Shown piece by piece: positions 9,857-52,939 of a DNA stretch of 64,000 bases. The position numbers and the translations under genes are program-made. Numbering within the stretch: position 1 is the stretch's first letter; the number at the start of each line of letters is the position of its first letter. This DNA comes from Flaccisagitta enflata (taxonomy: Eukaryota): the NCBI GenBank assembly GCA_965153355.1, contig OZ231126.1, positions 46,624,001 through 46,688,000 on the forward strand, given 5' to 3'. The notes beneath the pieces were generated by a model, which did no database searches, was not told where the DNA came from, and saw only the letters and a list, made by a program, of their open reading frames with translations.

Positions 9857-10044
<188 letters not shown>

Positions 10045-10247: not shown

Positions 10248-10343
<96 letters not shown>

Positions 10344-22602: not shown

Positions 22603-22639
<37 letters not shown>

Positions 22640-22655
22640 GGGAAAAAGAGAGAGA

Positions 22656-22709
<54 letters not shown>

Positions 22710-22856
22710 AGAGAGAGAAAGAGAGAGAGAGAGAAAGAGAGACAGAGACAGAGAGAGAGAGAGATTCTAAATAGATTCTAAGTAATAAACAAAGGATAGA
22801 AAGACATACATTCTAAGTTATGAACGTTTTATTATATTTGTAAATTAGATTCTAAG

Positions 22857-22936
<80 letters not shown>

Positions 22937-22953
22937 GAAAGAGAGAGAGAGAG

Positions 22954-23802: not shown

Positions 23803-23810
23803 CTCCCCCC
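23803..23810 (-). other. Polypurine tract (plus-strand primer)
   Basis: Minus strand reads AAAACGGGGGGAG directly before the TG of the 3' LTR. Confidence 0.85.
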
Positions 23811-24439: not shown

Positions 24440-24487
24440 CAGCCTGTGCCCCGCCGAAGCGGGTCCCATCCGGGCGCAAGCAGGCTG
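24440..24487 (-). repeat. Structured 44-nt motif, copy 1 of 3
   Basis: gcctgtgccccgccgaagcgggtcccatccgggcgcaagcaggc; also present at 27416-27459 and 31150-31193. Confidence 0.85.
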
Positions 24488-24549
24488 ACGTCGAAGAGGT
24501 CCATTCCATTCGTCACTACGTCGCCATCGTCGTTGACGTTGTTGTTCCG

Positions 24550-24672
24550 TTGTTGTTTCATTGTTGTTCTGTTGTTGTTTCATTGTTGTTCTGTTGTTAT
24601 CATTGTTGTTCTGTTGTTATCATTGTTGTTCTGTTGTTATCATTGTTGTTCTGTTGTTATCATTGTTGTTCA
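24550..24672. repeat. 20-bp minisatellite (cattgttgttctgttgttat)n
   Basis: Visible tandem array of about 5-6 units. Confidence 0.85.
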
Positions 24673-24747
24673 TTGTTTCTTATCGTTGTTGTGTTGTTGT
24701 CGTTTACATTGGAGGTCGCGGTGCTAGATCCGTTACAGGCGAACGGA

Positions 24748-26555: not shown

Positions 26556-26819
26556 TGTTCGAGATCGAGAAGAAAGTCACCACGGTTTTCGTCGCCAATC
26601 AATTGTTTCAATTCATCTCTATACATCGAGTTTTCTCGCATTCTCTTGGAATGCGTCGTCTGAGTTTTTAATCTCTCTGATCGAGTCTGTACATTTTGAA
26701 TCATCACATCTTCAATGAATCTGAGGAAAATGACCATTTTTACGGTCCGGTGTTATCATCAATATCATTTTTATCATCATCATCATTTTATCTTTATCCT
26801 CTTTTTTTTTTAAATTTGC

Positions 26820-27125
26820 GATATCATCGTCATCGGCATTGTACATTTAACAGCAGTAATGTAATCACAATCATTGTGCCTTTTTTCCTATCTGAACGAT
26901 GAGACTGAATCTGTCAGTCCCTCTGACCGGAAAAAATATAGCGCTGATTTTTAACCACGAAGGTAATCTAAATATACATATCGTCATCGGCATCATATAG
27001 CAAAGCAATATAATCACAATCATCGTGCCTTTTTCCCTATCTGAACGATGAGACTGAATTTGTCAGTCTTTCTGACCGGAAAAAATATAGCGCTGATTTT
27101 TAACCACGCAGGTAATCTAGACATA
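26820..27125. repeat. Tandem duplication of ~160 bp inside the accessory region
   Basis: atatcatcgtcatcggcat...gtgcctttt...ctatctgaacgatgagactgaat...ctgaccggaaaaaatatagcgctgatttttaaccacg..ggtaatcta occurs twice. Confidence 0.8.
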
Positions 27126-27129
27126 CATA

Positions 27130-27380
27130 CCGGCATCAGCCGGGGAAAAATATGTTTGGCCTAAGCCGCAAGAAACATTGGCCGAAGCCACCAGAATTAT
27201 CAGGACTAAGCCTGCCAAAAATAATAGGCCGTAGCCAGACAAGAAAATATCGGCCGGAGCCGCCTAAAAATCAGGTCTAAGCCTGTACTTAAAACTAAGG
27301 CCGAAGCCATCAAAATAATCGGCTAAAGCCGCCAAAAAATCAGGTCTAAGCCTGTACTTAAAATATTGAGCCGTAGCTCA
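27130..27380 (-). repeat. Array of ~11 mini-hairpins (GGC-UNNG-GCC type on the minus strand) with variable U-rich spacers
   Basis: On +: ccggcatcagccgg, ggcctaagcc, tggccgaagcca, caggactaagcctg, ggccgtagcc, cggccggagccg, caggtctaagcctg, ggccgaagcc, cggctaaagccg, caggtctaagcctg, tgagccgtagctca; period about 21-28 nt. Confidence 0.75.
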
Positions 27381-27412
27381 CAAGCATTAAATCAAAGATA
27401 AATCATGAGGGA

Positions 27413-27462
27413 TCCGCCTGTGCCCCGCCGAAGCGGGTCCCATCCAGGCGCAAGCAGGCGGA
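27413..27462 (-). repeat. Structured 44-nt motif, copy 2 of 3
   Basis: Same core with one substitution; closing stem extended by tcc/gga. Confidence 0.85.
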
Positions 27463-27663
27463 CCCCTAAAAAAAAAAAATTTACGAGTATGATTGGATGC
27501 CATTAGGGCTGAAAACAGGCCGATTAGTGATTTGACGATGGATACAAGCCGATTGATGACGATGGATCAAATCTGATGATTGTATGTACATGATGATGAT
27601 GCTTCGAGGAGTGAAGTGCGGTGCTGCCGGCTTCAGGCGAGCCGGATCTGCCGCTACTTCTGC

Positions 27664-30600: not shown

Positions 30601-32036
30601 ATTCTGTCCCTAATACCTTGAACTTTCTCCCTTTCCCTCTTCTCCTGCTCTTCCTCACCCTTCTGCTTCTGCCTCATCCTTTCCGCTTCCTTCTGTCTTT
30701 CTCTTTCCGGCTTGTCTTCGGCGAATCTCTGCCTTCCTTCCTTTTCCGCTCTCTCCTTCGCCGCGTCGCGCAGCACGTGTCGTCGATGGGCGATGGCGTG
30801 GAATTTCTCCTCCACTTTCTTCAGTCTTAACTTATTCTCCTCCGCCTCCTTTTCTTCTTCAGGCAGAGCTGCCAACGCCGCCGATTCTTCCCTCATTCTC
30901 TTCAGTTTGTTTCTCCTTTTACGCTGGTTTCGGGTCAGCGGAGGAGGCATGGAGCGGGCGAGGGCTGCAGACGAGCCCTGCACAGCCACGCCTCCTCCAC
31001 TGCCCTCCACCGGCGGCCGAGGGGATGAGGAGCAAAGAGGAGGAGGAAGCGGCGGTGGCTCGACGGTCGACGAGGCGCTGGCGTCGGGTAGCCGGTTCAA
31101 CTTCTCCCGTAAGTCTTTAATGAAGACGTCGCATGGTCGAGAGGGCACAGCCTGTGCCCCGCCGAAGCGGGTCCCGTCCGGGCGCAAGCAGGCTGGCGTC
31201 TCGTTGGGAGAAGGGCAGCGCGGCGTCGAGATGGAAATGGGCGTCGCTGCGTCGATGCATCCCGCCAACATGGTGGACGCCAAAGAGACGTCCGTGGTCG
31301 ACGCGAGGGATGAAGTCGACGACGCCGGCGACGGATCAGGGGGAGGCATCATGAACGGCTGGAGATCGTGGCGGCGTTGAAGGGGGCGTCCTTTGGAGTA
31401 AGAGGAAAGGTTTTAGAGGCAAAAATATACATCGGGTGTAAGGCACGCGAGAAAATCGTCAACACAGTGGCTTACAAGAAAGATGACATCGAAAACGCAC
31501 TGAGAACAGGGTTCATATCGCTAATTATTCTTAAAGATTGCTTAACATGAGTGAATTGTGATTTATTAGGTGAAATGAGTGATTTCCTTGATCGTTAGGT
31601 TACAGGCTCGAATGACTCAGACACTGTGATTGTGGAAGGATCACATATTGATTAGTGGGAGTGACTTCTCACCTTTATGACGGAATGAGGGCACTTGACG
31701 CTGTGGCCGTGGTGGCGAATTGCGGCCCGTCAAGGCTTTGTGGCGGGGCACGCGGGGGGCTTTGAAGCCGTCCAAGGTTTGAGGCGGGAACATCACCGGT
31801 CTTTTCGCTTTGACCACCGGTTCCGCCGGCACTTCTTCCTCCGCTTCCGCCTCCTCGCCCGCGACGCTCTCCTTCAGCCAATCGTCCACCTGCTGGCGCT
31901 TATTCTCCCGTTGCTGTCGATGGTACGACCGCTCTTCATCTTGCTTCCTTTCGCTCTGGAATCGGTTGAAGCGGACTTCGTCCTCTTCGTCGTCGCTGAC
32001 CTGTCGGTCATGCATCGATCGATTTGGAGACGACAT
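27664..32036 (-). CDS. Accessory gene A: spliced, ~841-aa charged/proline-rich protein of unknown function. Exons 32036-31673, 31390-30365, 30061-29640, 29423-28973, 27926-27664; the last intron may be retained, giving a stop at 27705.
   Basis: Separate ORF-track ORFs (131, 337, 161, 579, 73 aa) join in frame at GT-AG sites with matching phases: AAG|gtgaga..ccaaag|GA, CAG|gtaaca..ttgtag|GA, AGG|gtgagc..aatcag|AAT, CCG|gtaaac..cttcag|GT. Exons are GC/CpG-rich and introns more AT-rich. No recognisable domain. Confidence 0.7.
31148..31195 (-). repeat. Structured 44-nt motif, copy 3 of 3 (inside a coding exon of accessory gene A)
   Basis: Same core with one loop substitution; translated as PACLRPDGTRFGGAQA. 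Confidence 0.85.
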
Positions 32037-32470
32037 GACGACAATAGCGGCGAAGGATAATCGAATTTCGCTTTCCGAAGATAATTCAGTTCAAAAATGG
32101 TTAACAATTTCTTCGTGGACGTATCGCACGGAATACACTCGTGACAATCACAGAGTGGGGAAGATAATTTCTTACTGAACCTGAGCACGAGGAAGCAAAC
32201 GAGTTTGTAATAGTTTATGTATAACAGTGGCGAGAAGAGAGAGGAAATAATGCAGCAATTCAATAATATCTATCCAACAATGTCTATTATGGTCAGTTGC
32301 AATCTCCGTCAACAGGCAATATCTGTTCTAACTGTCTAAGTTAACAAAAAATGCCAAAATTTATATCGAGCTTTTGATAATAATGGCATGTATCTAGATC
32401 GATCCCCCTCGTCATGGGATTTCACATGAGGGGTCGAAGTTGAAGGTGCGCCCAGCCGTTCTCTCAAAAT

Positions 32471-32699
32471 ATGCAAATTAGTGAACCGGAAGTGACAGCG
32501 GAAGTCGGACCGGAAGTGACGCGTTTCCGGCCACGCCTACTCCGCAGTCGAGGAAAGGGAGATTCTCATCGACGCTCTCCTCTCCTCCTCCCTGATTCTC
32601 GACTTCGACGCCATCTTGGATTACTCCGTCGACGGATTGATTTTCTCCTCCTCGCTCCCGGATCCGAAAGTGCTCGTCTTATTCGAGCTTTCTGATTGG
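32471..32699. promoter_or_regulatory. Candidate internal promoter/enhancer (octamer, tandem ETS sites, YY1, CCAAT)
   Basis: ATGCAAAT 32471-32478; CCGGAAGTG at 32486 and 32510, GCGGAAGT at ~32498, TTCCGG at 32525; CGCCATCTT 32609-32617; ATTGG 32695-32699; CpG-rich; lies between the pol stop and accessory gene A. Confidence 0.5.
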
Positions 32700-33314
32700 T
32701 TGACACGGCTTAGTCGAAATTGATTCTCCAAGCGTATTATCAAGAAAGTGATATCATGGGCTATTACATATGCGTTTCGTATATATGATTCAAAAAAGGG
32801 AAGAACTATAGTTTGAGCGCGTCTACTGGCCTCAGTGAACTACCATCGCTACTGTCGGCTATAGTGAATGACTAATTATGTAATTTTAATGTTCAGACAC
32901 AGATAACCAACTACCGGCAGTAACGAATATCTAAATAGTTCTATCTAACGATGAGGCAAAGATGAAACGTGTTGTTAGTTGTAACAAATGACTGAATGGT
33001 ACACTTTTCATTTGTCAGTTATGAATGACAGTGAAAACCCGGCAATAACGAATGGTTTTGGGTTACGTTTTGCGATGTCTTTAGTAATTAGTTGTACTAA
33101 TATTATTAACGTTCTCCAGTACAACTTAAATGAATTTTAAAAATTGACATCGGACTTATCCAGGGTTAGTAGTCTACAGAGTCTGCTATAGTGAACATTG
33201 TCGAATTCCTAAATGATTGTTGTCGTCGGGGACAGGATGAATGTTGTAACAAGTTTTTTTTAGAGCTTCGATCCTGTTTTCTCCCCCCGTGGAGGACGAA
33301 TTTATAATTCAAGT

Positions 33315-36300
33315 TCACATCTCCAGCAGGATCAAGCTTCTAATGGCGCGGTCGACGATGCGGCCATTGCTTAATCTCACTAGAAAGCGTCGTCCGTGAC
33401 TTTCGTCGGAATTGATGATGCGGGTTATCCGGCCCATAGGCCAATCCTCGCGCGCAGTTGCGATGTCCTCGACCAGGACAAGGTCCCCGGGTTTCACGAC
33501 TGTTGATGACTGCTTCGAACGTTTCAACAGCTGTTGGAGGTAGTTGGCGCGGAATTGCTCCCAAAAGGCGTCGAGCAGGTATTGACTGCAGCGGAATCCA
33601 TGGCGTAGAACCGACGTTTTCTCCGCCTGAGGAGGAAGAATGTGATTCATGGTTGAGGTAAACAAGTATGGGTACAGGAAATGAGCTGGTGTGAGTGCCA
33701 TGTCATCGTCCACATCTGCTGATACTGGGGTTAGCGGACGCCTATTCATTATCGCACTGGCTCCAGACAGAAGCGTCTCGAAATCCTCTAGATCTACATT
33801 CTTGCTACCTATCACTGACCTCAATAATTTCTTGCTAAGCCCTACCAACCTTTCCCAACTACCACCGTAGCTGCCACAATAAGCTGGGCCAAATGTCCAG
33901 GTAAGTTCTAACTTATCTAGTTCCTCACTGAGATTTTCTTTTTTCCAAGCTGCAACTGACTCTTTAATTTCCCTATCTGCACCTCGAAAATTCGTGCCAT
34001 TGTCTGAGAAAATGTGTTTGAGTGCGGGAAACTGGGAATGTATTTTCACCAAAGAGTTAATGATGCTTGAAGTGGTCATGTCTCTAAGTGGGACTAGAGT
34101 GATTGCTCGGGTGGACATGCAACACGCAATCAAGACAAATTGTTTGCGGGTGCCGCGCCCTGTGTGGCGCAAATGGAATGGGCCCAGGCAGTCTAGTGCA
34201 CAGTGGTAGAATGGGGGTACTATGGCCATCCTTTCTGCTGGTAAGTTTCCTTCCTTTTGGGTGGCTTTGTTTTTGGACAGTCTTTGACAGGTGATGCATT
34301 TACTTATGACACTCCGGACTGAATTTTTACCCCCTAGGATGAAATATTTGCCCCTCAGCAGTAGATGGGTTTGCATTATGGTGCAATGAAATTTCTTGTA
34401 ATGGGCTTGGTGGTAATGTCTGATGATGGATTGGACTATCTCATGTGAGCTATTGGGCAGGATAATAGGGAATCTGTGGTTGTAAGGGAGATATTCAGCT
34501 TTAGCTATTCTCCCCCCTGCCCGCATCACATTCGACTCATCCAAAAATGGGCATAGTTTGGCCAACTTAGAATTTTTGATATTCATGTCTTGAATGGAAT
34601 TTGGTGAAAATATTCCCAGTTTGATCAGGCTGAGTATTTCTCGCTCAAATTCTACATTCTGAAGGGCCCTAACTAGCATATTTTCTGCATCTTCTCTTTC
34701 TGAGTCACTTAGGTGAATGATGTACTTATCTGGTTTTTCTATTTTTGTTCTCAGCCTAGTACTCATTACACCCTGTTGTTTGTTTTTAACCCTTTCTCTT
34801 AATTTCAAAATCACACGCTTTATTATCGCTACCCGGCGAATCTTTGTTCTCCATTCTGAGAGCTTACTTGTTGCCTTCAGTGGCCATGGTGCGAAGTCGT
34901 GATTTTGTGCCTCCACGATCGGTTCTTCCGTTGACCCGTAAGCGGCGATGATATTGAGAGCGGCGACGTCAGCCACCAATTCCGCCGGATTTTTGTTTGT
35001 CGGATTGGGTCGAACCGGGGGCCACTGTGAAAGGGGTAAAGAGAGAAAGGGCGGGCCTTGATGAAAAATATGCCATTTTTTGGTATCATTGGCTTTAATT
35101 CCTTCGGACGCGAGGTCCGCAGGATTCATTAAGGTGGGGCAATGGCGCCATTCAGATAAAGGTGACAATGATCTGATACACTTGACGCGGAAATTTTCAA
35201 ACGTTCTGAACCTTTTCGTAAAATTATTTAGCCACCCTAAAACAGTGAGTGAATCCGAAAAGATAAAGATGTCCTCAAATTCTTCCCCTGCATCCCTGAC
35301 TAACGTATCTCTCCATTGGGCGGCCACTTTGGCCGCGCACAATTCTAGCCTGGGGATGCTGTCTGAATGTGGGATAGCCCCCTTAGTTGGGTTAAGCATC
35401 ATATTGGTCGGCACGACATGCGCCTTACCGACCAAAAAGGAAACACTAATTTTATCTTCAGCTCCTCTCTGGTAACGGCGTAGGTAACTACACATCCCGT
35501 AGCCGTCCTTTGAGGCGTCACAAAAAAGAACTAGCTGACAGACTGAATGTTCCATACCCAAGGGGTTGGTCCACCTGCTTATCTTAATTTTCTTTAAATG
35601 GACTATTGTCTGTTGCCATTTAACTACGTCATTTTTCATCTCAGGGGTGAGGGCAGTTTTCCAGGGAATAGTGTCAGAGCTAATTTTTTGAAACAATAGC
35701 TTTCCTGGTAAAAGCCAGGGGCTTACCAACCCTATTGGGTCATACACTGACGCCACAAAGCTAAGTAGGTCTCGCTTAGTAACTATTTCCCTGTCTGGTT
35801 TGGTCCCTACCCTGACATTCATGACATCTTCTTCGAATGAGTAGCCTAGACCTAATACCTTGTCGCTTAGATCGGACTCATTCAGAAATTCTTTAGCACA
35901 ACTTTCTGTGTACCCGTTATTTAGGATACTCACCAATTCCGACGGTGATAGTTGAGCTTCTTGTTCTTCATCATCTGGATCCCCATCTTCATCTTCATCT
36001 GGATCCGCATCTTCCACTGGGGGCGTCGACGGGGTTGGGGGAGGTGCGCGGTGCTCCCCCAGACCACAGGCGGGCTGGCGCGTGCCGCGCCCTCCCGGAC
36101 ATCCGTGACCGCCCTTCGATGGTTCTGCATTTGCGCTTTGGCCCTTTGCCGTCTCGACTTGTGCCGGAGTAGCGACCTCCACGTTGGCGTTATCTCTGTC
36201 AAGAGGGGTAAGGGAAAGAGAGGATGGTAAATCAAGGTCGGGAAAATTCGACTTCCACTTGCATATATCCATGCCCCCTAATTTAAGCACTGCAGTTATT

Positions 36301-37757
36301 TCTGATTTTATCCTCCTAGCTGTCTCTTTATCATCTGTACTCTCTAGCAAGTCATCCACGTACATGGCGTAGAGTAACGCCAAGTACGTGTCTACACTAA
36401 TCTTGTCCTTATGTGTTTCTGCGTGAAGCTTGAGGATAAAATTGGAGATGGTGGGTGATGAAGTCACGCCGAACATATGGCGCAAACTTTCAATCATTAC
36501 CACCTTCTCCATGGTCTCGTCAGACCACCAAGGATAGCGCAAGGCTGAGCGATCCCTAGGGTCTAACAATATCTGAAAAAAAAAGTTTGTGATATCCGCC
36601 GAAATGGTGTATCTTTTTCGGCGGAATCGCAAAATTACTTTTATTAGGCCATTCAAAATGTCAGGACCGCTAAACAAGTATTTATTCAAAAAATGAGGAC
36701 CGACTCTGGAAGCGGCGTCCTGACAAATCCGGAATTTTCCGGGTTTGTCAGGTTTAACTACAATATGATTTGGCAAATAACAGACAACATTTTCGGGGGG
36801 GGCGTCTAATGTGTCTATTATCCGCGCATGCCCCGCTTCCAGAGTCATCCTCATCTGTTTAAAGGATCCCTCTTTGAGGGTCGGGTTTAGTCTAAATTTG
36901 CGTTCCAGTTTTGAATGGCGGTTCATGGTCATTTTGTAAAAATCTATGGTTTTGAACAGGTCAGCGGTGGGTTGGCGCCCTAAACGCCATGGCATGGTGA
37001 TTTCCCACCTTCCTTCTTCTTCTACAAATCTAGCTGATTCCTGCATCATCTTTAAACTCTGTTCATCTTCAACTGATCTATGTGTCATCTCTTGAGGAAA
37101 TAGCTCGAAGTCCCTACAGATGAAATCCTGTCTGAACATTCTATTTATCATATTTGCCAGGGTGATGGTTTCAGCACTAATGGTCATGATGTTGTTAGCC
37201 TGAATATCATTTTCATCATCTTCCTCTTCATTGTCATTTAAAATTCTGGGGCCTATAATCGCATGGCCAAATTTTGTTCCCAGTGCTAAGGGCTCGTCAT
37301 GTTTGCCCAGGCGGTTATCTCCCGTGCAAAAATAATATGCGTACTTAGCATCAAGCAACAGATTAATTTCTTTATCTTCTAATTCACATATTTTCAGATC
37401 CTTTAAATGCTCAAAACAACTCAATTCGCTTTGGGTGGGGGGTTTTTCTGTTTCTGTAGATAATTGGCTACCAATAAGGGCGTTTTCTACTTTTATTTCA
37501 AAGGTGTTACTCAAATTAGTAACTTTGAAGGAAGTGATTTGTCTTGTAGCATTTGAGGAACTGTCAAAGGTGTTTAATTTAACTGAAATTGATTTTCTGG
37601 GTGCATTTAACTCATTGCAAAGTGACTCAGTTACGGCGCTTGTGTTAGCGCCGGTATCTATGAGTGCGTAAGTGGGGCGTCTTTTACCATTTACATGAAT
37701 CATCACAGGTACAATGGGCCTGGTGGCACCGTGACGCCCCACGAACGCAGCCCTCAG
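33315..37757 (-). CDS. pol: Bel/Pao Pol: aspartic protease, reverse transcriptase, RNase H, integrase; in frame with gag after a single TGA
   Basis: YALIDTGANTS (PR); KFRICQDAAS, ADITNFFFQI, FGVTSSP, YVDDLL (RT); LFCDAS, IPRLELCAA, FSDSLTVLGW, NPADLAS (Pao RNase H); CITCQR, LDCLGP, SDNGTNF, GGSWERLV (IN); FWEQF...PGDLVLV...WPMGRI (DUF5641-like). No internal stops. Confidence 0.97.
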   Translation of the reverse strand: MRAAFVGRHGATRPIVPVMIHVNGKRRPTYALIDTGANTSAVTESLCNELNAPRKSISVKLNTFDSSSNATRQITSFKVTNLSNTFEIKVENALIGSQLSTETEKPPTQSELSCFEHLKDLKICELEDKEINLLLDAKYAYYFCTGDNRLGKHDEPLALGTKFGHAIIGPRILNDNEEEDDENDIQANNIMTISAETITLANMINRMFRQDFICRDFELFPQEMTHRSVEDEQSLKMMQESARFVEEEGRWEITMPWRLGRQPTADLFKTIDFYKMTMNRHSKLERKFRLNPTLKEGSFKQMRMTLEAGHARIIDTLDAPPENVVCYLPNHIVVKPDKPGKFRICQDAASRVGPHFLNKYLFSGPDILNGLIKVILRFRRKRYTISADITNFFFQILLDPRDRSALRYPWWSDETMEKVVMIESLRHMFGVTSSPTISNFILKLHAETHKDKISVDTYLALLYAMYVDDLLESTDDKETARRIKSEITAVLKLGGMDICKWKSNFPDLDLPSSLSLTPLDRDNANVEVATPAQVETAKGQSANAEPSKGGHGCPGGRGTRQPACGLGEHRAPPPTPSTPPVEDADPDEDEDGDPDDEEQEAQLSPSELVSILNNGYTESCAKEFLNESDLSDKVLGLGYSFEEDVMNVRVGTKPDREIVTKRDLLSFVASVYDPIGLVSPWLLPGKLLFQKISSDTIPWKTALTPEMKNDVVKWQQTIVHLKKIKISRWTNPLGMEHSVCQLVLFCDASKDGYGMCSYLRRYQRGAEDKISVSFLVGKAHVVPTNMMLNPTKGAIPHSDSIPRLELCAAKVAAQWRDTLVRDAGEEFEDIFIFSDSLTVLGWLNNFTKRFRTFENFRVKCIRSLSPLSEWRHCPTLMNPADLASEGIKANDTKKWHIFHQGPPFLSLPLSQWPPVRPNPTNKNPAELVADVAALNIIAAYGSTEEPIVEAQNHDFAPWPLKATSKLSEWRTKIRRVAIIKRVILKLRERVKNKQQGVMSTRLRTKIEKPDKYIIHLSDSEREDAENMLVRALQNVEFEREILSLIKLGIFSPNSIQDMNIKNSKLAKLCPFLDESNVMRAGGRIAKAEYLPYNHRFPIILPNSSHEIVQSIIRHYHQAHYKKFHCTIMQTHLLLRGKYFILGGKNSVRSVISKCITCQRLSKNKATQKEGNLPAERMAIVPPFYHCALDCLGPFHLRHTGRGTRKQFVLIACCMSTRAITLVPLRDMTTSSIINSLVKIHSQFPALKHIFSDNGTNFRGADREIKESVAAWKKENLSEELDKLELTWTFGPAYCGSYGGSWERLVGLSKKLLRSVIGSKNVDLEDFETLLSGASAIMNRRPLTPVSADVDDDMALTPAHFLYPYLFTSTMNHILPPQAEKTSVLRHGFRCSQYLLDAFWEQFRANYLQQLLKRSKQSSTVVKPGDLVLVEDIATAREDWPMGRITRIINSDESHGRRFLVRLSNGRIVDRAIRSLILLEM

Positions 37758-40700
37758 TCAGTCAGTATCGTCACCGCCATCTGAAGCTTCATCTGACTCG
37801 CTATCTTGATTCTGTTCTGTCTGTCTTTTGTAATCCCGATGTAATAGCGAGTGATGAAACCCCCCTGTACAATGATCGCACTCAATCCCTGAGTCACAGT
37901 TCTTTGCAATGTGACCATGCTGAAAACATCTGTGGCATAGTCCTCTGGTTTTTAGAACTAAAAATCTCCCATACTGGTTTTTAGCTAGGAACTCTTTACA
38001 GTTGGTAAGCTCATGGAACTTGGACCGGTTGCAGACGGGGCACGACCAATTACCTGTAGTCTGTTTGGAAGTGGCTGCAGATTGGTTGTTGTTCCCTGAC
38101 GCCGAAGAGTCAGTGTTGGCGCCCTTTCTTTGATTGTTGGCGGCGTCGTTTCCGCCTGAGGGGCGCTTGCCGGTTCCATAAGTCTGAGATTGTTGTTTTT
38201 GTTGCGTCTCGAGTTTGGCGGCCGCCACCTGTGCAGCCTTTTGTTGCTGTTGTTTGACCGAAGTTTGCGACGCCGCGGGAGTGTTGTCTGAAGGTGAGGT
38301 ACTGTTGTTGCCGGGAGTAGAGTCATTTCCTCCTTGCGGCTTTCCTCTCCCTCTCCCTCGCTTTCCTCCTCCTCCTCTGAAATTGTTGGTTGTTTCGGGG
38401 GCGCCGTTGGTTGATGTTGGTGACGCCGCTATAGCGTCAATTTTCATTGTCCTGGCGTCTTTCTTATTTTTGGGCGTCTCTTTGGGACCTCCAATCAACT
38501 CTCGTTCGTCCGAGATGAAATTTTGCGACCTGAGGAAAGTTAGGAAATCATCAAAACGGGGTTCAGGTTCCGCATTTTCAGGTTCAACACCCATGACCTG
38601 TTTACCCCTTTCGACTGCCCATCGATTTTTTACAAATGGAAGTTTTTTCCTAATTATCTTGTTTATAGTGTCAGCGTTATCAAAGGAATTAGCCCTTCCT
38701 GAGGCTTTAGCCTTAGTGACCTCCCCTTCTAGGTTGATTCTAAACTTTTTAAAGGCTGCTGTATCCTCCTGTTTAATAGCTGCTCCTGTTAAGAGACGAT
38801 CTATTATGGCTTGAGCTGACCGGGCATGATACCCATACTCCTGTTTGAGGTGACGGATTGCTTTTTGTAGATTCTCTTTGGGGTCCCCCTCTCCCTCATA
38901 GAGTTCACATATTTTAGCGGCGTCGCCGCTAAAATAGTGTTTTAATTCATAACACTGTTCCTGGGGGGCTACTTTTGATTCCTCAGTAACTCTCTTAAAT
39001 CTAAGCAGGGTGGATTCGAAATCTACATTATGATTCCCGTCAAACCTCTGATCGATGGGCAGTCGGTTGGACTTCAAATAATCCCTAGCATTACCAGCAG
39101 TTTGAATTAATAGTAACTGTACAGCAGCATCTTTAGCCGGGTCTGGCACACCATTAGCAGCACCTGACGAACTGTTAACTGTGTTCGATTGATTGCTAAC
39201 TGTGTTTGACTGACTGTTAACTGTGCCTGGCTGACTGTTAACTACATTTGAGGGGTTGTTAACCGCACCTGCTGATGATTGTGAGGAGTCATTTTGGTTT
39301 CCAGGACTGGTAACCGTCGATTGGTAGTCTTCGTCGTCGTCGGATAATGGCGTCCGATCTAATGGCGTTGGGTTCGTTGCGACGGGTGGAGGATTTGTTG
39401 CTGCCGGGAGCGAGGGCGCCGCCGCGGGAATCGAGTTCGCCGCCGCAGCTGATGTAGGACTCACTCCCGCTGGAATCGGGTTTGCCGGCGCGGTCATCGC
39501 CTGTGGGACCGAATTAGATTGAGGATTAATCGGTCCAACCGGATTTACAGTCGGGTAAATGGGCAATGAGGGCGGGGGCATTTGGAACCTTGGGTCAAAA
39601 TAAGGCCATACAAACTGAGGGTTAGGCCAGGGAAATGTTTGACCTGATGGGGGCATCTGAATGACTGGGGGATTCACAGGGCTGGTACAGGCTACAGGCG
39701 AGCCTGCCGCTGCCGTGACTCCTCCAGCCGGGTGGAAAAGAGGGTTAGACTGAGGTGCCCTGGGGTTAATTGGATGGTTAATAGGCCCATTTATTCCTGA
39801 TTGGGCTCCGCGCCTAACAGTACTAGCAGTGATGGTTGAACTGCCTGAATCGGATGAATGATGATGATCGGGCTGACCCGACCTGACTTGACCTGACCTG
39901 ACCCGTCCTGACCTTACCTGTTCAGGCTGACCGGTTTGGGTCTGATTGGGGGCTGATGTTTGAATGTTCTGATTTTGACCTTGAATTGGAGCTGGGTAAG
40001 TCTGATCGGGGTCATGGTTAAATTGACTCTGAGGGGTATTGTCTTGCCTTATAACTGGGGTGATAGATTGATTACCGGAATGACCCACTTGAGGCTGATT
40101 ATTTTGGTCAATGGGAATCGAGGGATTAGAGGATTGATTCCTGTCATGCCTAGAGGATCGAGATCGAGGTGGTCTGTCATTACGGTCCGTATTTCTCGAG
40201 CAAGAGGAAATTGAGTCGGTCGGTCTGACCGCTGCCTGATTAGGGTCATTTTGAGTATCTAACCAGGAATCTGTACGGGTTGGACCGACTGGTGCTAAGG
40301 CTGCTCCACCGAGTGGATGTTGGAGCAGATCGCTTAGTTCGCCCACGGCAGCGTTTACATGTCTGCCTATTGACTGCAAGCTGGTATTATGTGCTTGTTC
40401 AGATATCCTAGTCATCTCCTCCTCATATCTTTGAACCCTTCTTTCAAGCCTACCCTTCTTTCTGTGAATTGAGTCATACCTAACACGTAGAATCGAGGTG
40501 GCATTTCCGGCGTTGGCGGTGGCCGGCGGGCTCTCGTCCATAGCGGGCTGATCGAAGTTAGTCCGATTAGAGGCCGTTGATGAGGAGACTAACGAGGTAT
40601 GGTCGGTCATCCCGGATACTAAGGATGTTGCATTAGATCGAGATGGAATTTCGCGGCGTCCGGCGCTGTTATTGCTTTCCGGCGGCGCCCTTTCGCGCGT

Positions 40701-41450
40701 CGTTTCATCGTCTATCACGGACGGCGCCCTCGACGTCTCACTGAAGGCTATGAGGGCTAGTTGAGGTTGAGGCGCCGTTCCAGCGGCCGCCGGCGTCGTC
40801 GCGATGGGCGCTGTAGATGATGCTTCCGGCGCCGGGAGTGCAGGGCGCGCGGGCGGCGCGGGAAGCGCCGGGGAAGCGGTTGGTCGTGTCGGTGCGGATA
40901 GTAACGGCGGCGGCAGTGGTCCTATGAACGGCTCCCTCGGCGGAAGCGGACCTACAGCCGGCGGCGTCGTTTCTAGTAGGCTGATCCGATTGAGCGGCGC
41001 TACTCGCAAATCGAGGGGAAACGGAGGAAGGACTGGTCCAGCGTCTCGATTGATCCTGTTAAGGAATGTACCAGCGATTTGTGGGTCAATTTCTATGACT
41101 GGTGGAAATTCAAAAGGTGGATGGGAGTCTAGTGACATCTGCATCCGACCAATTATACTGATCAAACTATCCCTGTCTGCAATGATGGTAAATTTATCAC
41201 AGATCTCAGAAATGGCTAACTTTTGTACTGTTAACTGAGACCTAAGGTCATTGGCCTGAACCTTAAATTCCTGGTCTGGATGGTCTCGGCCCATGCCAAA
41301 GGCTTGAACGAATTTTTGAATAAGGGCCGTAGACTCTTTTATCAGCTTACGGGCGTGACGACTATCAAAACGGGCAGCAACGTCATAATACATGGCACAC
41401 CCCGGGGGTAGGCCCCTGGGCGCGTCAGGGGGTAAGCCCCCTTCTGCCAT
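37758..41450 (-). CDS. gag: Bel/Pao Gag-like protein, 1230 aa
   Basis: Long ORF with a DUF1759-like core (FDGN...ELKHYFSGDAAKI...LKQEYG) and the C-terminal Cys/His cluster CPVC..H...C / CHRCFQHGHIAKNC / CDHCTGGFHHSLLH typical of Bel/Pao; long P/S/Q/N low-complexity N-terminal half. Confidence 0.92.
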   Translation of the reverse strand: MAEGGLPPDAPRGLPPGCAMYYDVAARFDSRHARKLIKESTALIQKFVQAFGMGRDHPDQEFKVQANDLRSQLTVQKLAISEICDKFTIIADRDSLISIIGRMQMSLDSHPPFEFPPVIEIDPQIAGTFLNRINRDAGPVLPPFPLDLRVAPLNRISLLETTPPAVGPLPPREPFIGPLPPPLLSAPTRPTASPALPAPPARPALPAPEASSTAPIATTPAAAGTAPQPQLALIAFSETSRAPSVIDDETTRERAPPESNNSAGRREIPSRSNATSLVSGMTDHTSLVSSSTASNRTNFDQPAMDESPPATANAGNATSILRVRYDSIHRKKGRLERRVQRYEEEMTRISEQAHNTSLQSIGRHVNAAVGELSDLLQHPLGGAALAPVGPTRTDSWLDTQNDPNQAAVRPTDSISSCSRNTDRNDRPPRSRSSRHDRNQSSNPSIPIDQNNQPQVGHSGNQSITPVIRQDNTPQSQFNHDPDQTYPAPIQGQNQNIQTSAPNQTQTGQPEQVRSGRVRSGQVRSGQPDHHHSSDSGSSTITASTVRRGAQSGINGPINHPINPRAPQSNPLFHPAGGVTAAAGSPVACTSPVNPPVIQMPPSGQTFPWPNPQFVWPYFDPRFQMPPPSLPIYPTVNPVGPINPQSNSVPQAMTAPANPIPAGVSPTSAAAANSIPAAAPSLPAATNPPPVATNPTPLDRTPLSDDDEDYQSTVTSPGNQNDSSQSSAGAVNNPSNVVNSQPGTVNSQSNTVSNQSNTVNSSSGAANGVPDPAKDAAVQLLLIQTAGNARDYLKSNRLPIDQRFDGNHNVDFESTLLRFKRVTEESKVAPQEQCYELKHYFSGDAAKICELYEGEGDPKENLQKAIRHLKQEYGYHARSAQAIIDRLLTGAAIKQEDTAAFKKFRINLEGEVTKAKASGRANSFDNADTINKIIRKKLPFVKNRWAVERGKQVMGVEPENAEPEPRFDDFLTFLRSQNFISDERELIGGPKETPKNKKDARTMKIDAIAASPTSTNGAPETTNNFRGGGGKRGRGRGKPQGGNDSTPGNNSTSPSDNTPAASQTSVKQQQQKAAQVAAAKLETQQKQQSQTYGTGKRPSGGNDAANNQRKGANTDSSASGNNNQSAATSKQTTGNWSCPVCNRSKFHELTNCKEFLAKNQYGRFLVLKTRGLCHRCFQHGHIAKNCDSGIECDHCTGGFHHSLLHRDYKRQTEQNQDSESDEASDGGDDTD

Positions 41451-41908
41451 GATAATTTCTTTTTAACTAAAGTCGATCAGGGGGTTTAGATCCTTAAATA
41501 GTTCAGGCCAAAGATCTTGGGTCAAGAAGGCTCGCGTACCGAGGCCTAACTGACGCCTAAGATACTAAATTCTGTTCTTCCTGGACACGGCGCCCCTCCT
41601 AAGGGATGGGCGCGAGGACTAATTATCGGACGGGCGTGACCCTTAGATGAACAAGTTTCTAACAACGCAGTTTCTCTTATAAATCCTATCTGACGGCCGA
41701 AGCTCTTCCCGGAGGAAAAGCACGGAACGTAATTTAACGAGAATTAGCAATGGACCGGCGCCCGTCGTGAGAGGGGCGCGGTCCTAAATTCGGATCGGTA
41801 AATAAATCTGAGAATTGTACTCGTCGAATACTCACCCACGGAGACGAAGTCTTTGACGTTTCCAAACGCAATTAAGCAAGAGCATAAAAAGAGCGCGCGA
41901 TATCAACA

Positions 41909-41917
41909 AGTTCAAAC
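41909..41917 (-). other. Non-canonical primer-binding site (candidate self-priming site)
   Basis: Minus strand after the 5' LTR reads GTTTGAACT with no TGG; it is complementary to LTR 42076-42084 (minus AGTTCAAAC). Confidence 0.5.
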
Positions 41918-42764
41918 TGTTACTGAGCAACCTCAGTATATATTTCTAATGCCCTATTATGCTCCTGCTTTAGCGTTCGCGCTGAGTCCTTGACTGCTTG
42001 CTTGTCTTCTAATAAATACAGCGAAATCTTATCCAAACGAATTCTTTATTAGAAGAAGATATCCAAAGCAACGTAGTTTGAACTGTAAAGGACAGATAAT
42101 AATGGAATTTAGACAGAGACACAAAAGCTATATAGTTAGGCCAGATGCTTTAAGACTCTAAAAATGTAACATGAAAATGAATCTAATATGTAAAGGAGGC
42201 CCAAGTTACCTTGGTTATGCGCTGAGACGGTAAAGAAAAGTATCCAGTATTCTCCAAAATCAGAGGCAAAGTATGAGAGTAACAATCCAAATCAGTAAAT
42301 CCGGAGCAAATAAATCGTAATAAATTCGCAGGAGAATCTATCGTAAATGAATAATGCGGAAGGGAATTTGGCGGCTCTCGACTAATTCTAAAAGTGGTCA
42401 ACAGAGGGCGCTGAATTCCGCCGCCAAAATCGCCTAAACATAAGGCCCGCTCAAATCTACCGTAAACAAAAGGCCTCTTCGTAGGTAAAGCGAATTAAAG
42501 CAAAGGACGCGAATAAACCGAAACTAAACAGAGAATAAATCTATTCGGACAGACAATAATCAAATGGGACAGACATAAGGACAGTTCAGACAGACAAAGG
42601 ACATCAAAATAATCATCAAAATATCAAATCAAAATAATCAACCTGAAAAGAAAAGATTAGAAATACCCAAATACCTACCTGAAATATGAACCCAAATTCA
42701 ATATATATAAACCAAAATAAATCAATACCAATAAGACATGGCCCCAAAACCTTGCTTCACGACA
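41918..42764 (-). repeat. 5' LTR (847 bp)
   Basis: Begins tgttactgagc and ends cttcacgaca on +; matches 22954-23802 apart from one 2-bp indel and one substitution seen by eye; lies upstream of gag on the minus strand. Confidence 0.96.
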
Positions 42765-42768
42765 GAGA

Positions 42769-42819
<51 letters not shown>

Positions 42820-43299
42820 AGAAGAAGAAGAAGAAGAAGAAGAAGAAGAAGAAGAAGAAGAAGAAGAAGAAGAAGAAGAAGAAGAAGAAGAACTAGTAGA
42901 AGACGAAGAAAAAGAAGTAGACGAAGAAGAAAATATTTATAGAAAGGGAAACATAACCAAACTGTTCAAGAAGAAAAAGATGGAGGGCAAAGACGAGGAG
43001 GTGAAGGATCATACTATGCCAGCCTGGGGGCTGGGGCATTAGCCACAGTGACTAGCTATGAAGCTGCATAACAAATTTTACCTGAGAAATTGTGGGGCTC
43101 ATGCTAATTCCATTGTTAATGCTAATGTCAATATTTTTTAGTACTTTTTAACCTAAGAAGATGTAATTCCTGATGCAAGCCTGCATTTATACCAGGAATG
43201 ATGTTGACTTTACCACCCCAGGTTGGTATAGTATCCCCCTTACTCTCCCCCCCCTTGCCATGTTAACATTATCTCTGATGATCTATGTTTCCTGTCACT

Positions 43300-43850
43300 G
43301 CCGATTCTGCCGCTGCCGACTGTCCATCACATTATCACATCACATCACGTTATCTCTGTCTCCTCTCACTGCCAATTCTGCTACTGCCGATTTTTATATT
43401 TTCTTTTCTCTGTGTCCTACCATTGCCGATTCTGCCGCTGCCGACTCTCTTCATTTCCTTTACTCTGTCTCCTACAGCAGCCGATTCTGCCGATGCCGAC
43501 TCTATTTCATTCTCTCTGGCTCATGCCTCTGCCAATTTTGCCAACCCTGCCGACCCTGCCGACCCTGCTAACCCTGCCGACTGCCGACTTTGCCGACTCT
43601 GCCGACTTTGCCGACTTTGCCGACTTTGCCGACTTTGCCGACTTTGCCGACTCTGCCGACTCTGCCGACTCTGCCGACTCTGCCGACTCAGCCGACTCAG
43701 CCGACTCAGCCGACTCAGCCGACTCAGCCAACTCAGCCGACTCAGCCGACTCAGCCGACTCTGCCGACTCTGCCGACTCTGCCGACTCTGCCGACTCAGC
43801 CGACTCAGCCGACTCAGCCGACTCTGCCGACTCTGCCGACTCTGCCAACT
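43300..43850 (+). repeat. 9-bp minisatellite (ctgccgact)n
   Basis: Visible array; source of the spurious ADS/PTL/CRL ORFs. Confidence 0.9.
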
Positions 43851-44272
43851 CTTCAATTTTTTTCAGAAAATTTCTTACTAATTTATTTTTCAGTTATAAA
43901 AAAAAACTTTTTTTTTATCTGATTTTCAGAAAATTTCTTACTAATTTCTTTTTCCAGTTATGAAAAAAAAACTTTTTTTTTATCTGATTTAGATTCTTCC
44001 TATAGGGATAGCTTTGTAGTTGCGTGCTAAGCGACTAAACACTACTTTGTCCGTCCGTCAGTTGGTAGGTCAGTTTAAAGTTTGAAGAATGAATAAAAGG
44101 GAAAATAGACAAATCAAGGTATTTATTGATAGACAACGGAACACTAGACAGGCTTGAAGACAGATACAGACATACAAGGGAGCAGGCTGACAGTTAAGAG
44201 ACAGTGAAGTTGAATGAAATTTCGGGCATTGGGCAGACGAAGAGATCAAGCCACAGGCACACAGGCACACAG

Positions 44273-44339
<67 letters not shown>

Positions 44340-45114
44340 AACGGACCAAAAACGCCAGGAACAAATTCGTGTAGCAAGTGCCGGAAAGGAATGATAATTT
44401 AAGAGGCTTTTTTTAAGAGCGAGCCCGCGAGCCCGCGTCTCTCCAATTTGCTGTTGGGCTCTCACTTTCTGCTGGCTCTGAGCCCGGCAGGCTCCCTCTT
44501 ATTTGGTGTGACATGTTAGACTCAAGTGGATTTAATCATTTTCGTAAAATTTTAAAAAAGCCGACTGGCAAGTTGAGAGTTACTGAAAAGTAAAATATCA
44601 GAAAGCAAATGCATTTCCTCCACTGGGGCGTTTCTAGTCGCAGACAATCGCGTTTTTAACGGGCCACTCGGTCGCTTGCTACGTTCGTTCGCTCGCACCG
44701 CTCACTCCACTCATGGGCTCGCTGGGAACAAATGCGTTTTTCATCTTCACTAGAAACACGCCCACTGTCTCTAATCTCTATCATGAAATGTGAACAGCTA
44801 ATTGTTAAATGAGCTTAAGCATCTAGGCTAAGATAAAATGTGAACAGCTAATTGATAAATGAGCATGCTAGGCTTCTCCACTGAGTCGGTGGGTCCATTT
44901 GTTGGTTGGTCCATTGATAACTCTTTCCTATTTGGGCGTTTAAACGCGTTTTCGGGACATTAAAGCATCACTGCCTGTTTTTTTCAAGTGCATTGTAAGT
45001 GTGTCTGTAGTTGATAATGATTTCTATTTACAGAGATACTAAGATGAAAGAAGCCACTGTTTGTAGGCACATAGGATTAGAAAATTGACAAAAATTGTCA
45101 TTTTTTTCCGTTTA

Positions 45115-45423
<309 letters not shown>

Positions 45424-45458
45424 GTCTCTCTCTTAGTCTCTCTCTTAGTCTCTCTCTT

Positions 45459-45600
<142 letters not shown>

Positions 45601-46252
45601 CGAGGAGCAGACGGAGTGGATGGAGAGGATGAAAAAATAATAATATTCTACCGTCTGAACATAACCTTTTAGAGTGTCATTTATCTATTTTCATTCATCT
45701 AACGCGTGATCAGCCTAGAGTATGATGCAATTACTCAAAAAGATTTGCTTGTACAAATAGAAATCGTCCAATAAAGTTACAAAGAGCCATCAACGTTTTT
45801 AGTCGCGTGGACGCGACTCTACGCCCCACTTTGTCCGTCCGTCCGTCGGTCGGTTGGTCCCCATTTTACTTTTTTTATCAATTTTATTTCTGTAAGTCAT
45901 TTTAAGTCATTTAAGGGTAAAATAAGTCATTCTAAGTCATTCCAAGTCATTCTATGTCAATCTGTAAGTCTCGCAGGCGACTTATAGGTGCTGGCCTTGT
46001 TATTTTTAATTACAATAATCATGGCTTTGCTTTATTTAGATAGGTGTAACTTAGATACCAAAATTTGACAAAGTTTTAAAACCTCATGTCATCTTATCTA
46101 GACATTTGACATTAGACAAAGTTGTTTTTTTCATACTTTGAAAAAAAAATGTCGAGATTACACGGTGCGCCCGAATAAACTAAAGACCCCAGATTGGTCC
46201 CATTTTAGAAGTCACCCCGTGTAATGGAAATTCTCAAACCATACAACTAAAA

Positions 46253-46896
46253 ATAGTCGCAAAAGCGTTAGATGGTCAGCGGTACCCGTTGCCCCTATGT
46301 GAGTGTATGTGTGGGAGAGGTGGTTAGAGGGGCAGCGGCCCCGAAGGGGCCGATGACCTATGCTGTTTTTATTTGAGCCTCAAGGCTGGGATTAGGGCCT
46401 GGAGGCTGGAATTTAGGCCTCCAGACTGGGATTTGAGCCTCGAGGCTGGGATTTGAGCTTCAAGGCTGGGATTTGAGCTTCAAGGCTGGGATTTGAGCCT
46501 CGAGGCTAGGTTTTGGGCCTCGAGGCTGGGATTTGAGCCTCGAGACTGGGATTGGAGCCTCGAGGCTGGGAATTGAGCCTCGAGGCTGGGATTTGAGCCT
46601 TGAGGCTGGGAATTGAGCTTCAAGGCTGGGATTTGAGCCTCGAGGCTGGGATTTGAGCCTCGAGGCTGGGTTTTGAGCCTCGAGGCTGGGTTTTGAGCCT
46701 CGAGGCTGGGTTTTGAGCCTCGAGGCTGGGTTTCGAGCCTCGAGGCTGGGATTTGAGCCTCGAGGCTAGAATTTGGGCCCGGGGGGGGGGGGACGGAGAA
46801 GAAGAAGGAGAAGAAGGAGAAGGAGGAGAAGGAAAAAGTTTCCCATATGTGTGAAAGCATAGGTCATCGGCCCCTTCGGGGCCGCTGCCCAAAAAA
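46253..46896 (-). mobile_element. Helentron-like non-autonomous element with central 20-bp tandem array (gcctcgaggctgggatttga)n
   Basis: 35-bp subTIR gggcagcggccccgaaggggccgatgacctatgct near both ends; inverted relative at 56759-57672 and partial copy at 15325-15660. Confidence 0.7.
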
Positions 46897-48349: not shown

Positions 48350-49020
48350 AGCAGTCGGCAGGATCGGCAGTTGGCAGCAGAAAGAAATAAAATAGAGATA
48401 AGAGAGAGTCAGCAGTCGGCAGAGTCGGCAGTTGACAGCAGACAGAAATGAAAGAGATATCAGAGAGTCGGCAGTCGGCAGAGTCGGCAGTCGGCAGCAG
48501 ACAGAAATGAAAAAGACATGAGAGAGTCGGCAGTCGGCAGAGGCAGGAGACAGAGAGAAGGGAATAGACAGGGTCGGCATCGCCAGAATCGGCAGAGGCA
48601 GGAGACAGAGAGAAGGGAATAGAAAGGGTCGGCATCAGCAGAATCGGCAGAGGCAGGAGACAGAGAGAAGGGAATAGACAGGGTCGGCATCGGCAGAATC
48701 GGCAGAGGCAGGAGACAGAGAGAAGGGAATAGACAGGGTCGGCATCGGCAGAATCGGCAGAAGCAGGAGACAGAGAGAAGGGAATAGACAGGGTCAGCAT
48801 TGGCAGAATTGGCAGAGGCAGGAGACAGAGAGAAGGGAATAGACAGGGTCGGCATCGGCAGAATCGGCAGAGGCAGGGGACAGAGAGAAGGGAATAGACA
48901 GTCGGCATCGGCAGAATCGGCAGAGGCAGGAGACAGAGATAGGGTTCAAAATACAGAGTCGGCGGCAAAATCGGCAGAGGCAAGACCTGAGTCTGGACTG
49001 GGTCAGAATCGGCAGAATTG
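48350..49020 (-). repeat. 54-bp tandem repeat containing inverted GCCGAC motifs
   Basis: ggcagaggcaggagacagagagaagggaatagacagggtcggcatcggcagaatc repeated about 7 times. Confidence 0.9.
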
Positions 49021-50201: not shown

Positions 50202-51719
50202 AATAAATCCATATTCTCCTGTAAATCTACATATCGGTAAAGGGGTGGGGGGTACAAGCGGAAATGCTTTTACACTTTCAAAGTAAGCACGAGTGTTATG
50301 GATGGACTGACGGATTAACAGACTAATCGACGGACAAAGCCCTTTTTAGAGTTATGAGTCAACAAAGAACCCCCCCCCTCAAAAAAATGAAAATGAAAAT
50401 AAAAATAGAAATTAAAAAAAAAAGAAAGAAAGAAAGAAAAAAAAAAAGCGTTGACAAAATAATTAATTTCAATTATGATTGTTTTTAGTCGCGTGCACGC
50501 GACTCTATACCTTGCTCTGTCGGTCGGTAGGTCGGTAGGTCCGTCGGTCCCGTAACCTTTTTTAATTTTCGACATTTTTTAACATTTTTTAACATTTTTT
50601 TGCATTTTTTAACAATCTTTAACATTTTTTAACATCTTCTGACTTTTTTGGCATTTTAACATTTGTTAACATTTTTTATTATTTTTGATTATTTTTTAAC
50701 ATTTTTTAACATTTTTTAACATCATTTAACATTATTTAACATTTTTTAACATTTTTTAACATTTTCTAACATTTCCTGAAATTTTTAACATTTTGTCTGT
50801 CATTTCCAGACGCACGCGACTGTTGCCCTCTTGGGCTTGTTTTACCTATCATTCGGTTTTCTTCGATGCTTTGGAGCAACATAGATTTGCGTAAATACAT
50901 AAATAAATGAATCGTAAGGAAAAACGAAAAAGCGATGGGAGAGGTCGGGTCGATCGGGGTGCTAAACGCCTTTTTCTGCCCATCGACCAGCGATCCTATT
51001 TTAAGCAACGTCGCCCAATGATCATTTAGCGACCAATGTTTGGGCAGCCCTAACTGGGAATTATGGTGGCCACCGAGACAGAGAGGTCGAACCCCGTGGC
51101 CCCGCGCGCTGAAAACCAATCGCCTGTCAAAACGGCAACAATCGAGAGACGGCGAAAGACAGCAACCAGACCAATTGCCAGCTTCGCGTCAACGCCGTCT
51201 GACAATTTTGTCCGTTTGTCTGTTTATCTGTTTATTTGCCTGTCAATCTCGTTGTCTGTTCCCCCCCCCCCGCCCACGACGATATTGTAAGTGACAATAC
51301 TATTTGTGACCTCGTGTCACTTGTTCCATTTTCACATATTTTCATCCAAAGCCTAAGGCCCACAAGCTCTCAAGTTCCACGCGGCTTGAATAATATAATA
51401 GCGAGAAGGCCCGACGTATGATCAAAAACTAAAAAACATTTTCTAACAAACATACGACAGATCACCCATACCAGCAGCAAGCACGTGGTCGTCAGTAACC
51501 AACGCTTTTGGGCATGATCGCATGACTGAAACACCCTTGTCCTCCCACAAAAAAGCATTCCGTCAACTGGTTTCGTTATTTAAAAGAATCAAAATATGTA
51601 AAATTTCGGGCACCCATTGTCACTGTGCCATCCTCCTTTTGGTTATGGATATCTCAAAGGTGATGTAGTGACCTTTATACACGTATGTGCGTGCATGTGT
51701 GTGTGCGCGCGCGCGCGTT

Positions 51720-52939
<1,220 letters not shown>

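Follow-up and report, generated by a model that had tools for sequence, protein, structure and literature searches.

How does a Bel/Pao retrotransposon prime reverse transcription when the site next to its 5' LTR does not resemble the target of a tRNA 3' end? The question is raised by an element on the minus strand of the window (the whole 64,000-nt stretch of DNA analysed here). Replication of the Belpaoviridae has been called "poorly understood" and is taken to be primed by tRNA (PMC8742986). The original prediction proposed another route, in which the element would use a short piece of its own RNA in the manner of Tf1. Tf1-like self-priming is the single most likely reading of the primer for this element, with a probability of roughly 0.45. 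It is the leading reading because an element that is very likely active has no tRNA-type primer binding site (PBS), and because an exact complement of the LTR-adjacent site, anchored at the LTR edge, lies in the element's own predicted R, for which chance accounts in well under 1% of cases.

Structure and classification of the element

The element is an intact Bel/Pao LTR retrotransposon that occupies 22954-42764 of the minus strand (19,811 nt, or 19.8 kb). Its main parts are as follows.

41918-42764, minus strand: 5' LTR, 847 nt, with ends TGTCG...GTAACA
22954-23802, minus strand: 3' LTR, 849 nt; one 2-nt indel and one substitution relative to the 5' LTR
23803-23815, minus strand: polypurine tract AAAACGGGGGGAG, abutting the 3' LTR
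37758-41450, minus strand: gag-like ORF, 1234 codons, ending in TGA; 1230 codons from the first ATG (37761-41450)
33315-37757, minus strand: pol ORF, 1480 codons, in the gag frame and directly after the TGA

Pfam identifies gag-asp_proteas (residues 20-72), RVT_1 (377-505) and Peptidase_A17 (660-836, E 4.5e-37) in the 1480-aa pol product, and Integrase_H2C2 (1106-1160) and DUF5641 (1388-1478) in its C-terminal part. The domains follow the Pao-type order PR, RT, RH, IN. The assignment to Bel/Pao, already made in the original prediction, is therefore sound; it is carried by Peptidase_A17, RVT_1, Integrase_H2C2 and DUF5641. Members of the Belpaoviridae have LTRs of 0.2-1.2 kb and genomes of 4.2-10 kb (PMC8742986). 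The LTRs of this element (847 and 849 nt, beginning with TG and ending in CA, the 3' copy preceded by a polypurine tract) are of the Bel/Pao type, and its length of 19,811 nt lies outside the 4.2-10 kb range, at about twice the family size.

The 5' and 3' LTRs are 99.647% identical over 849 columns. Their 2-nt indel (TA, at 42002 and 23040) is also polymorphic in other copies, with depths of 793.8/3262 in DNA run X1 and 9.07/9.07 in run X2. Such polymorphism is odd for LTRs that are expected to be identical at insertion; gene conversion between copies is a possibility. Both flanks of the element are CT/GA microsatellite, and CTCTC at the flanks would fit a target duplication but is no proof of one. 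The insertion site is itself a GA/CT microsatellite. Microsatellites and short-period tandem arrays are unusually frequent in the window as a whole; their repeat periods are 2, 3, 8-10, 9, 20 and 55 nt, and they are located at 9700-10450, 22600-22950, 42810-43900, 45000-45700, 46290-46850, 48480-48970 and 51680-52520.

A leader of 467 nt separates the 5' LTR from gag. The gag-like protein is very long. Its N-terminal domain, about 150 aa in length, is conserved; a low-complexity middle of about 700 aa, rich in P, Q, S and T, follows, and zinc knuckles are found near the C-end. Pfam has no match for this ORF. At the gag/pol boundary there is a lone in-frame TGA (37758-37760, minus strand) followed by CTG AGG, and the two ORFs together comprise 2714 open codons. 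Gag and pol share a frame, with one TGA between them and CTG directly after it, a layout that suggests stop-codon readthrough, which has been described for Tj1 and for type C retroviruses (PMC4600332).

The pol stop (33315) and the 3' LTR are 9.5 kb apart. Three ATG ORFs are found in this post-pol region (24748-31352), all on the sense strand of the element:

30339-31352, minus strand: ORF of 337 aa
27705-29378, minus strand: ORF of 557 aa
24748-25689, minus strand: ORF of 313 aa

The 557-aa and 337-aa ORFs are rich in E, K and R. None of the three has a match in Pfam. Fifteen relatives of the 313-aa ORF (E 0.001 or better; identity up to 77%) mark it as a conserved gene. Its AlphaFold model has a mean pLDDT of 66.9; when this model was compared with the PDB using Foldseek, there was no match at E 0.001 or better and there were 107 at E 10 or better. 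A search of the Atlas with the same ORF gave no usable match.

Copies, activity and relatives

Parts of the stretch are found in 20 of the 24 public runs listed. None of these contains half of its words, and the best share (0.40) belongs to a DNA run. The other runs are mostly marine metagenomes, and three are RNA libraries. Contigs of four of these runs were aligned to the stretch; DNA run X1 contributed 189, among which 52 are at least 99% alike. The window itself holds no second copy of the element or of the PBS. Given the open gag and pol ORFs and the near-identical LTRs, it is very likely that the element family has been active recently. It follows from this activity that a functional, non-canonical primer must exist.

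Of 5621 candidates for the pol product, 104 match at E 1e-20 or better. The top 39 of these 104 are all ENA metagenome proteins (P0004-P0042; 87-32% identity), and named animal Bel/Pao proteins reach 32% or less. Contigs of up to 12.4 kb encode P0004-P0037 (87-35% identity). For the N-terminal domain of the gag-like protein, two of 83 candidates are relatives (P0002 and P0003; 73% and 54% identity). The metagenome Bel/Pao Pol clade is diverse and stands well apart from the named Bel/Pao proteins of insects, nematodes and fish. Deep "BEL environmental clades" in plankton are reported in a Tara Oceans study (PMC5029228), and the element may belong to one of these.

DNA of relatives was sought in three collections. 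Viral contigs yielded none with Pol, Pol-alignment and LTR-end-pattern queries, and genome contigs yielded none with the Pol alignment and the LTR-end pattern. In metagenome contigs, the gag N-terminal alignment gave 223 pattern matches, none of which was confirmed. A 63-aa ORF that spans the PBS was also compared with the protein collection, with the aim of finding miscalled ORFs in the LTRs of relatives; there was no candidate.

The primer binding region

On the minus strand, the 3' edge of the 5' LTR reads ...CTCAGTAACA at 41918, and the leader opens with GTTTGAACTTGTTGATATC at 41917. The first TGG of the leader lies 53 nt downstream of the LTR. A PBS for a tRNA 3' end is thus absent at the place where it is required, as had been claimed at the outset: the 52 nt that follow the LTR contain no TGG, and a tRNA PBS of the type described for the Belpaoviridae is not seen. 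Two other sites attract attention instead:

41909-41917, minus strand: candidate PBS GTTTGAACT, leader nt 1-9, directly after the 5' LTR
42076-42084, minus strand: primer-like site AGTTCAAAC, LTR positions 681-689 of 847, the exact complement of the candidate PBS

The counterpart of the primer-like site in the 3' LTR is at 23114-23122. The original prediction described a perfect 10-nt complement between the LTR edge and the LTR interior, with a 9-nt match anchored exactly at the edge. Both are borne out: leader nt 1-9 are the 9-nt match, and the duplex reaches 10 bp when the terminal A of the LTR (41918) pairs with the U at 42075. No extension is possible on either side.

To estimate how often such a match arises by chance, the LTR was shuffled 5000 times with its dinucleotide content preserved, and six anchor offsets around its edge were allowed. 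An anchored perfect complement of at least 9 nt was present in 34 of the 5000 shuffles (0.0068), and one of at least 10 nt in eight (0.0016). It should be noted that a 9-mer match between leader and LTR is ordinary as such. In the background comparison of the 467-nt leader with the LTR there are two complementary and three same-sense 9-mers, and none of 10 nt; the match is unusual only in being anchored at leader nt 1. When imperfect duplexes are allowed, the pairing energy between R and the PBS region is -13.1 kcal/mol; this is equalled in 269 of 1000 shuffles and is not unusual.

Copies of the element in other runs bear on the length of the primer-copied stretch. At minus-strand position 41906 (leader nt 12), the window has T (A on the plus strand), and the contigs of X16, X1 and X2 all have minus-strand A (T on the plus strand) at full depth. 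Because the contigs of all three runs differ from the window here, the change is private to the window copy. The difference at leader nt 12 would fit a primer-copied stretch shorter than 12 nt. Among the differences listed for the aligned contigs, none falls in either 9-mer site, and as far as these listed differences go, contigs of the three runs share the first 11 leader nt with the window.

Promoter signals and transcript start

A Tf1-like mechanism would, we infer, need a transcript start at or next to 42084. Two signals in the LTR bear on this start, and both are found where the original prediction placed them:

42129-42134, minus strand: TATATA, 45-50 nt upstream of the primer-like site
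42045-42050, minus strand: AATAAA; the LTR has no other on its sense strand

TATAWA occurs four times in the LTR (42709, 42707, 42134 and 41942), and only the copy at 42134 is both upstream of the poly(A) signal and near it. The primer-like site is placed between this TATATA and the sole AATAAA (42050), and so it lies inside the region where R is expected. The interval between the two signals makes up about a tenth of the LTR. The candidate PBS that adjoins the LTR is exactly complementary to a site in the element's own predicted R.

The exact start is a different matter. In metazoan genes, initiation takes place about 28-33 nt downstream of the first T of a TATA box. TATATA lies 45-50 nt upstream of 42084, and by this spacing the start would be expected at about 42101-42106, near CCATT, and not at 42084. 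The claim that R begins at 42084 thus holds in so far as the site is within the expected R, but the predicted start is about 20 nt further upstream. An initiator-like CA+1GTT context had also been proposed. CAGTT does occur, only once in the LTR (at 42085), and the primer-like site begins at its A; the initiator look, however, comes largely from the first four letters of the 9-mer itself. No fitting DPE or MTE was seen by eye downstream of 42084 or 42103.

The position matters for the mechanism. If the RNA began about 20 nt further upstream, the primer would carry a 5' flap; copied into the plus strand, this flap would prevent the second strand transfer, which makes the start position critical.

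Contigs cover the region in part. Record 10 of run X16, an RNA library that may contain DNA, spans 41784-42106 and joins U5, PBS and leader. It extends 22 letters beyond 42084, which is below the 31 required for bridging. A DNA contig (record 17 of X2) ends nearby at 42097, so the X16 contig may stop at 42106 because of a break in the assembly. In RNA run X16, no contig covers 42120-42383, and cover in X13 is confined to 42333-42517; these gaps are not read as absence.

Predicted RNA structure around the PBS

The fold of the RNA around the PBS was predicted with and without the leader. The predicted features are:

41921-41938, minus strand: U5-IR-like hairpin UACUGAG-GUUG-CUCAGUA of 7 bp, which stops 3 nt short of the LTR end; predicted in both folds
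41951-41970, minus strand: U5 strand of a U5-leader helix (predicted fold)
41874-41898, minus strand: leader strand of the U5-leader helix (predicted fold)
41899-41917, minus strand: PBS-sized interval of 19 nt, from the LTR end to the U5-leader helix, mostly unpaired in the 247-nt fold

A U5-IR-like stem-loop is thus predicted next to the PBS. When the R-U5-PBS RNA is folded alone, the 10-bp primer:PBS duplex is present in both the MFE and the centroid fold, with a mean pair probability of 0.90-0.97. It is a short, AU-rich duplex (-9.1 to -10.7 kcal/mol). The U5-leader helix (-26.3 kcal/mol) forms once 40 or more nt of leader are included; the z-score of the fold is -2.78, and the pairing between U5 and leader is equalled in four of 1000 shuffles. 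With the leader included, the pair probability of the primer:PBS duplex in the nested model is 0.000. Because the two helices cross, they can coexist only as a pseudoknot. In this model the 19-nt unpaired interval would be arranged like a classical PBS that receives its primer in trans; it would be compatible with a cis primer too.

Search for a tRNA primer

ARAGORN finds no tRNA gene in the window. An Rfam E-value scan of 41400-42800 returned one match at chance level (E 3.1) and nothing tRNA-like. Metagenome contigs were also searched with a 17-nt primer-sense pattern that allowed both variants at 41906. None of the 118 matches listed lies in a predicted tRNA gene, in a collection that may lack relatives of the host. 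Likewise, none of the 118 is followed by an LTR end, i.e. none is a copy of the element. The metagenome result is a weak negative for tRNAs; it would miss complementarity of lesser length as well as any tRNA that the collection lacks. The 9-mer holds a motif which we take to resemble the conserved T-loop of tRNAs. A comparison of the PBS with animal tRNAs showed loop-motif resemblances only, and these are unusable as evidence.

Self-priming and its alternatives

Under Tf1-like self-priming, AGUUCAAAC (9 nt, in R of the element's own genomic RNA) would pair with GUUUGAACU just past U5, either by foldback or in trans within an RNA dimer. The RNase H of the element would cut after the 9-mer, and the freed 3' end would be extended through U5 and R. 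The plus strand would later copy the 9-mer back, so that the PBS and the R site would be perfectly complementary in every new copy. We infer every enzymatic step of this scheme.

In favour of self-priming, the LTR identity, the open ORFs, the polypurine tract and the near-identical copies mean that the family must have a working primer site. A complement that is rare by chance, a partner in the predicted R, a flanking hairpin and an R-U5-PBS fold that is predicted to form the duplex are all consistent with it. What stands of the original proposal is the lack of a TGG PBS, the anchored complement and its place in the expected R; the start at 42084 is not supported, as the TATA spacing points elsewhere. 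Several points argue against self-priming. The U5-leader helix of -26.3 kcal/mol would cross the duplex, the energy measure is not unusual, the transcript would start about 20 nt upstream of the site, and the 19-nt unpaired interval would have the size of a classical PBS for a trans primer.

These last points lead to a doubtful but serious alternative, in which a host RNA acts in trans. An internal or 5' tRNA fragment, or another small RNA, would bind to the 9-19-nt unpaired interval, with GTTTGAACTTG as the pairing target for its 3' end, and the complement in R would be due to chance. A U5-IR-like hairpin, a 19-nt open interval and a strong U5-leader helix would together make up a retrovirus-like PBS domain, as predicted here. 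The TATA spacing, which would put the start about 20 nt away from the R site on its upstream side, also favours a host-RNA primer. Matches of 9 nt between leader and LTR are common overall (two complementary and three same-sense), and the T-loop-like motif that the 9-mer presumably contains points in the same direction. There is precedent as well: the Belpaoviridae are described as primed by host tRNA (PMC8742986), and half-tRNA primers are known in Ty1/copia lineages (PMC6317226). This alternative comes at a price: the anchored match would be a coincidence with a likelihood of about 0.2-0.7%, and one about ten times rarer if the match is restricted to R. In addition, no tRNA gene was hit among the 118 listed metagenome matches to the 17-nt primer-sense pattern, the Rfam scan of 41400-42800 gave nothing tRNA-like, and the difference between copies at leader nt 12 is contrary to a long PBS copied from a primer.

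The mutual exclusion of the two helices in nested folds, with leader length deciding which one forms, can also be taken at face value. The complementarity between R and PBS might then have been selected as a long-range RNA switch, by masking of the PBS or by competition with the U5-leader helix, for example so as to control when translation, packaging or dimerisation takes place; something else would then serve as the true primer. This is improbable: a separate primer is still needed, there is no precedent in the Bel/Pao family, and a 9-bp AU-rich helix would be a weak competitor against one of -26 kcal/mol. It is still more improbable that this copy, or the whole family, is incompetent for replication, which would make the LTR-adjacent site a decayed PBS and the match meaningless. 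Nothing specific favours decay; the element is about twice the family size, with 9.5 kb of extra sequence. The near-identical LTRs, the 2714 codons of gag and pol that are open except for the one in-frame TGA between them, the many near-identical copies in a DNA run, and the first 11 leader nt, which are the same in contigs of three runs among the differences listed, all argue against it.

Self-priming, if correct, has wider implications. At somewhat less than even odds, this would be the first Bel/Pao (Belpaoviridae) lineage primed by a piece of its own RNA. Self-priming would then have an independent origin in a third superfamily, in a large undescribed clade of marine metagenomes; the element itself is of about twice the usual size and has conserved accessory ORFs. 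It would have evolved repeatedly across the superfamilies of LTR retrotransposons. Elements of this type would be freed from their dependence on host tRNA and would escape host defences that are based on tRNA fragments. PBS annotation pipelines that are limited to tRNA 3' ends would misjudge the clade of this Bel/Pao element. Whatever the priming mode, the size range of the Belpaoviridae is extended and a diverse marine Bel/Pao clade is indicated.

The original prediction knew of no such case in Bel/Pao, and the literature search, which covered main texts, found none either. There is no mention of Bel/Pao self-priming in the accessible parts of PMC6317226, PMC2864245, PMC3601003, PMC5443660 and PMC5445492. 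The words PBS, primer binding and tRNA are all absent from PMC3118150.

Comparison with known systems

Described members of the Bel/Pao family are 4.2-10 kb long and have an 18-nt PBS for tRNA-Arg or tRNA-Gly (PMC8742986), whereas this element has no TGG-type PBS and is 19.8 kb long. It shares its Pol domains, LTR length range, polypurine tract and gag-pol arrangement with canonical Bel/Pao elements (Belpaoviridae, genus Semotivirus).

A PBS that does not start with TGG can also serve a tRNA-derived primer. In copia and Ty5, the primers are cut from inside tRNA-iMet and the PBS has no TGG start. In avian retroviruses, U5-IR and U5-leader stems surround the PBS, and the primer, tRNA-Trp, acts in trans. 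The hairpin predicted upstream of the PBS in the present element and the long enclosing U5-leader helix are similar. Plant Ty1/copia elements primed by half-tRNAs likewise have a PBS without the initial TGG (PMC6317226).

Self-priming has also been proposed outside the Tf1/sushi group. Plant Tcn1 and Ty1/copia TAR elements, 12% of the plant elements surveyed, are predicted to be self-primed (PMC6317226). There, as here, it was deduced from sequence alone. The Tcn1 and TAR elements belong to different superfamilies from the Bel/Pao element and have plant hosts.

The closest parallel is with Tf1 and Tf2 of Schizosaccharomyces pombe, Tj1 of S. japonicus and other Tf1/sushi chromoviruses, which likewise have no tRNA-type PBS. 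They too have a short stretch near the start of R that is exactly complementary to the bases just past U5, and a hairpin that adjoins the PBS, as is predicted for the Bel/Pao element. The primer of Tf1 is the first 11 nt of its RNA, released by an RNase H cut between nt 11 and 12 (PMC7175516). That review also describes RNA structures that allow the 5' end of Tf1 RNA to pair with the PBS, and a title cited in it names a retroviral U5-IR-like stem-loop. Tf2 transcripts without the self-primer cannot be reverse transcribed (PMC5341516). The duplex comprises 11 bp in Tf1 and 9-10 bp in the Bel/Pao element. The Tf1 primer is the very 5' end of the RNA, whereas TATA spacing suggests a start about 20 nt upstream of the site in the Bel/Pao element. 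The Pol of Tf1/sushi elements is that of a Ty3/gypsy chromovirus and that of the present element is Bel/Pao; the element is therefore not a member of the Tf1/sushi group, and the mechanism alone may be shared.
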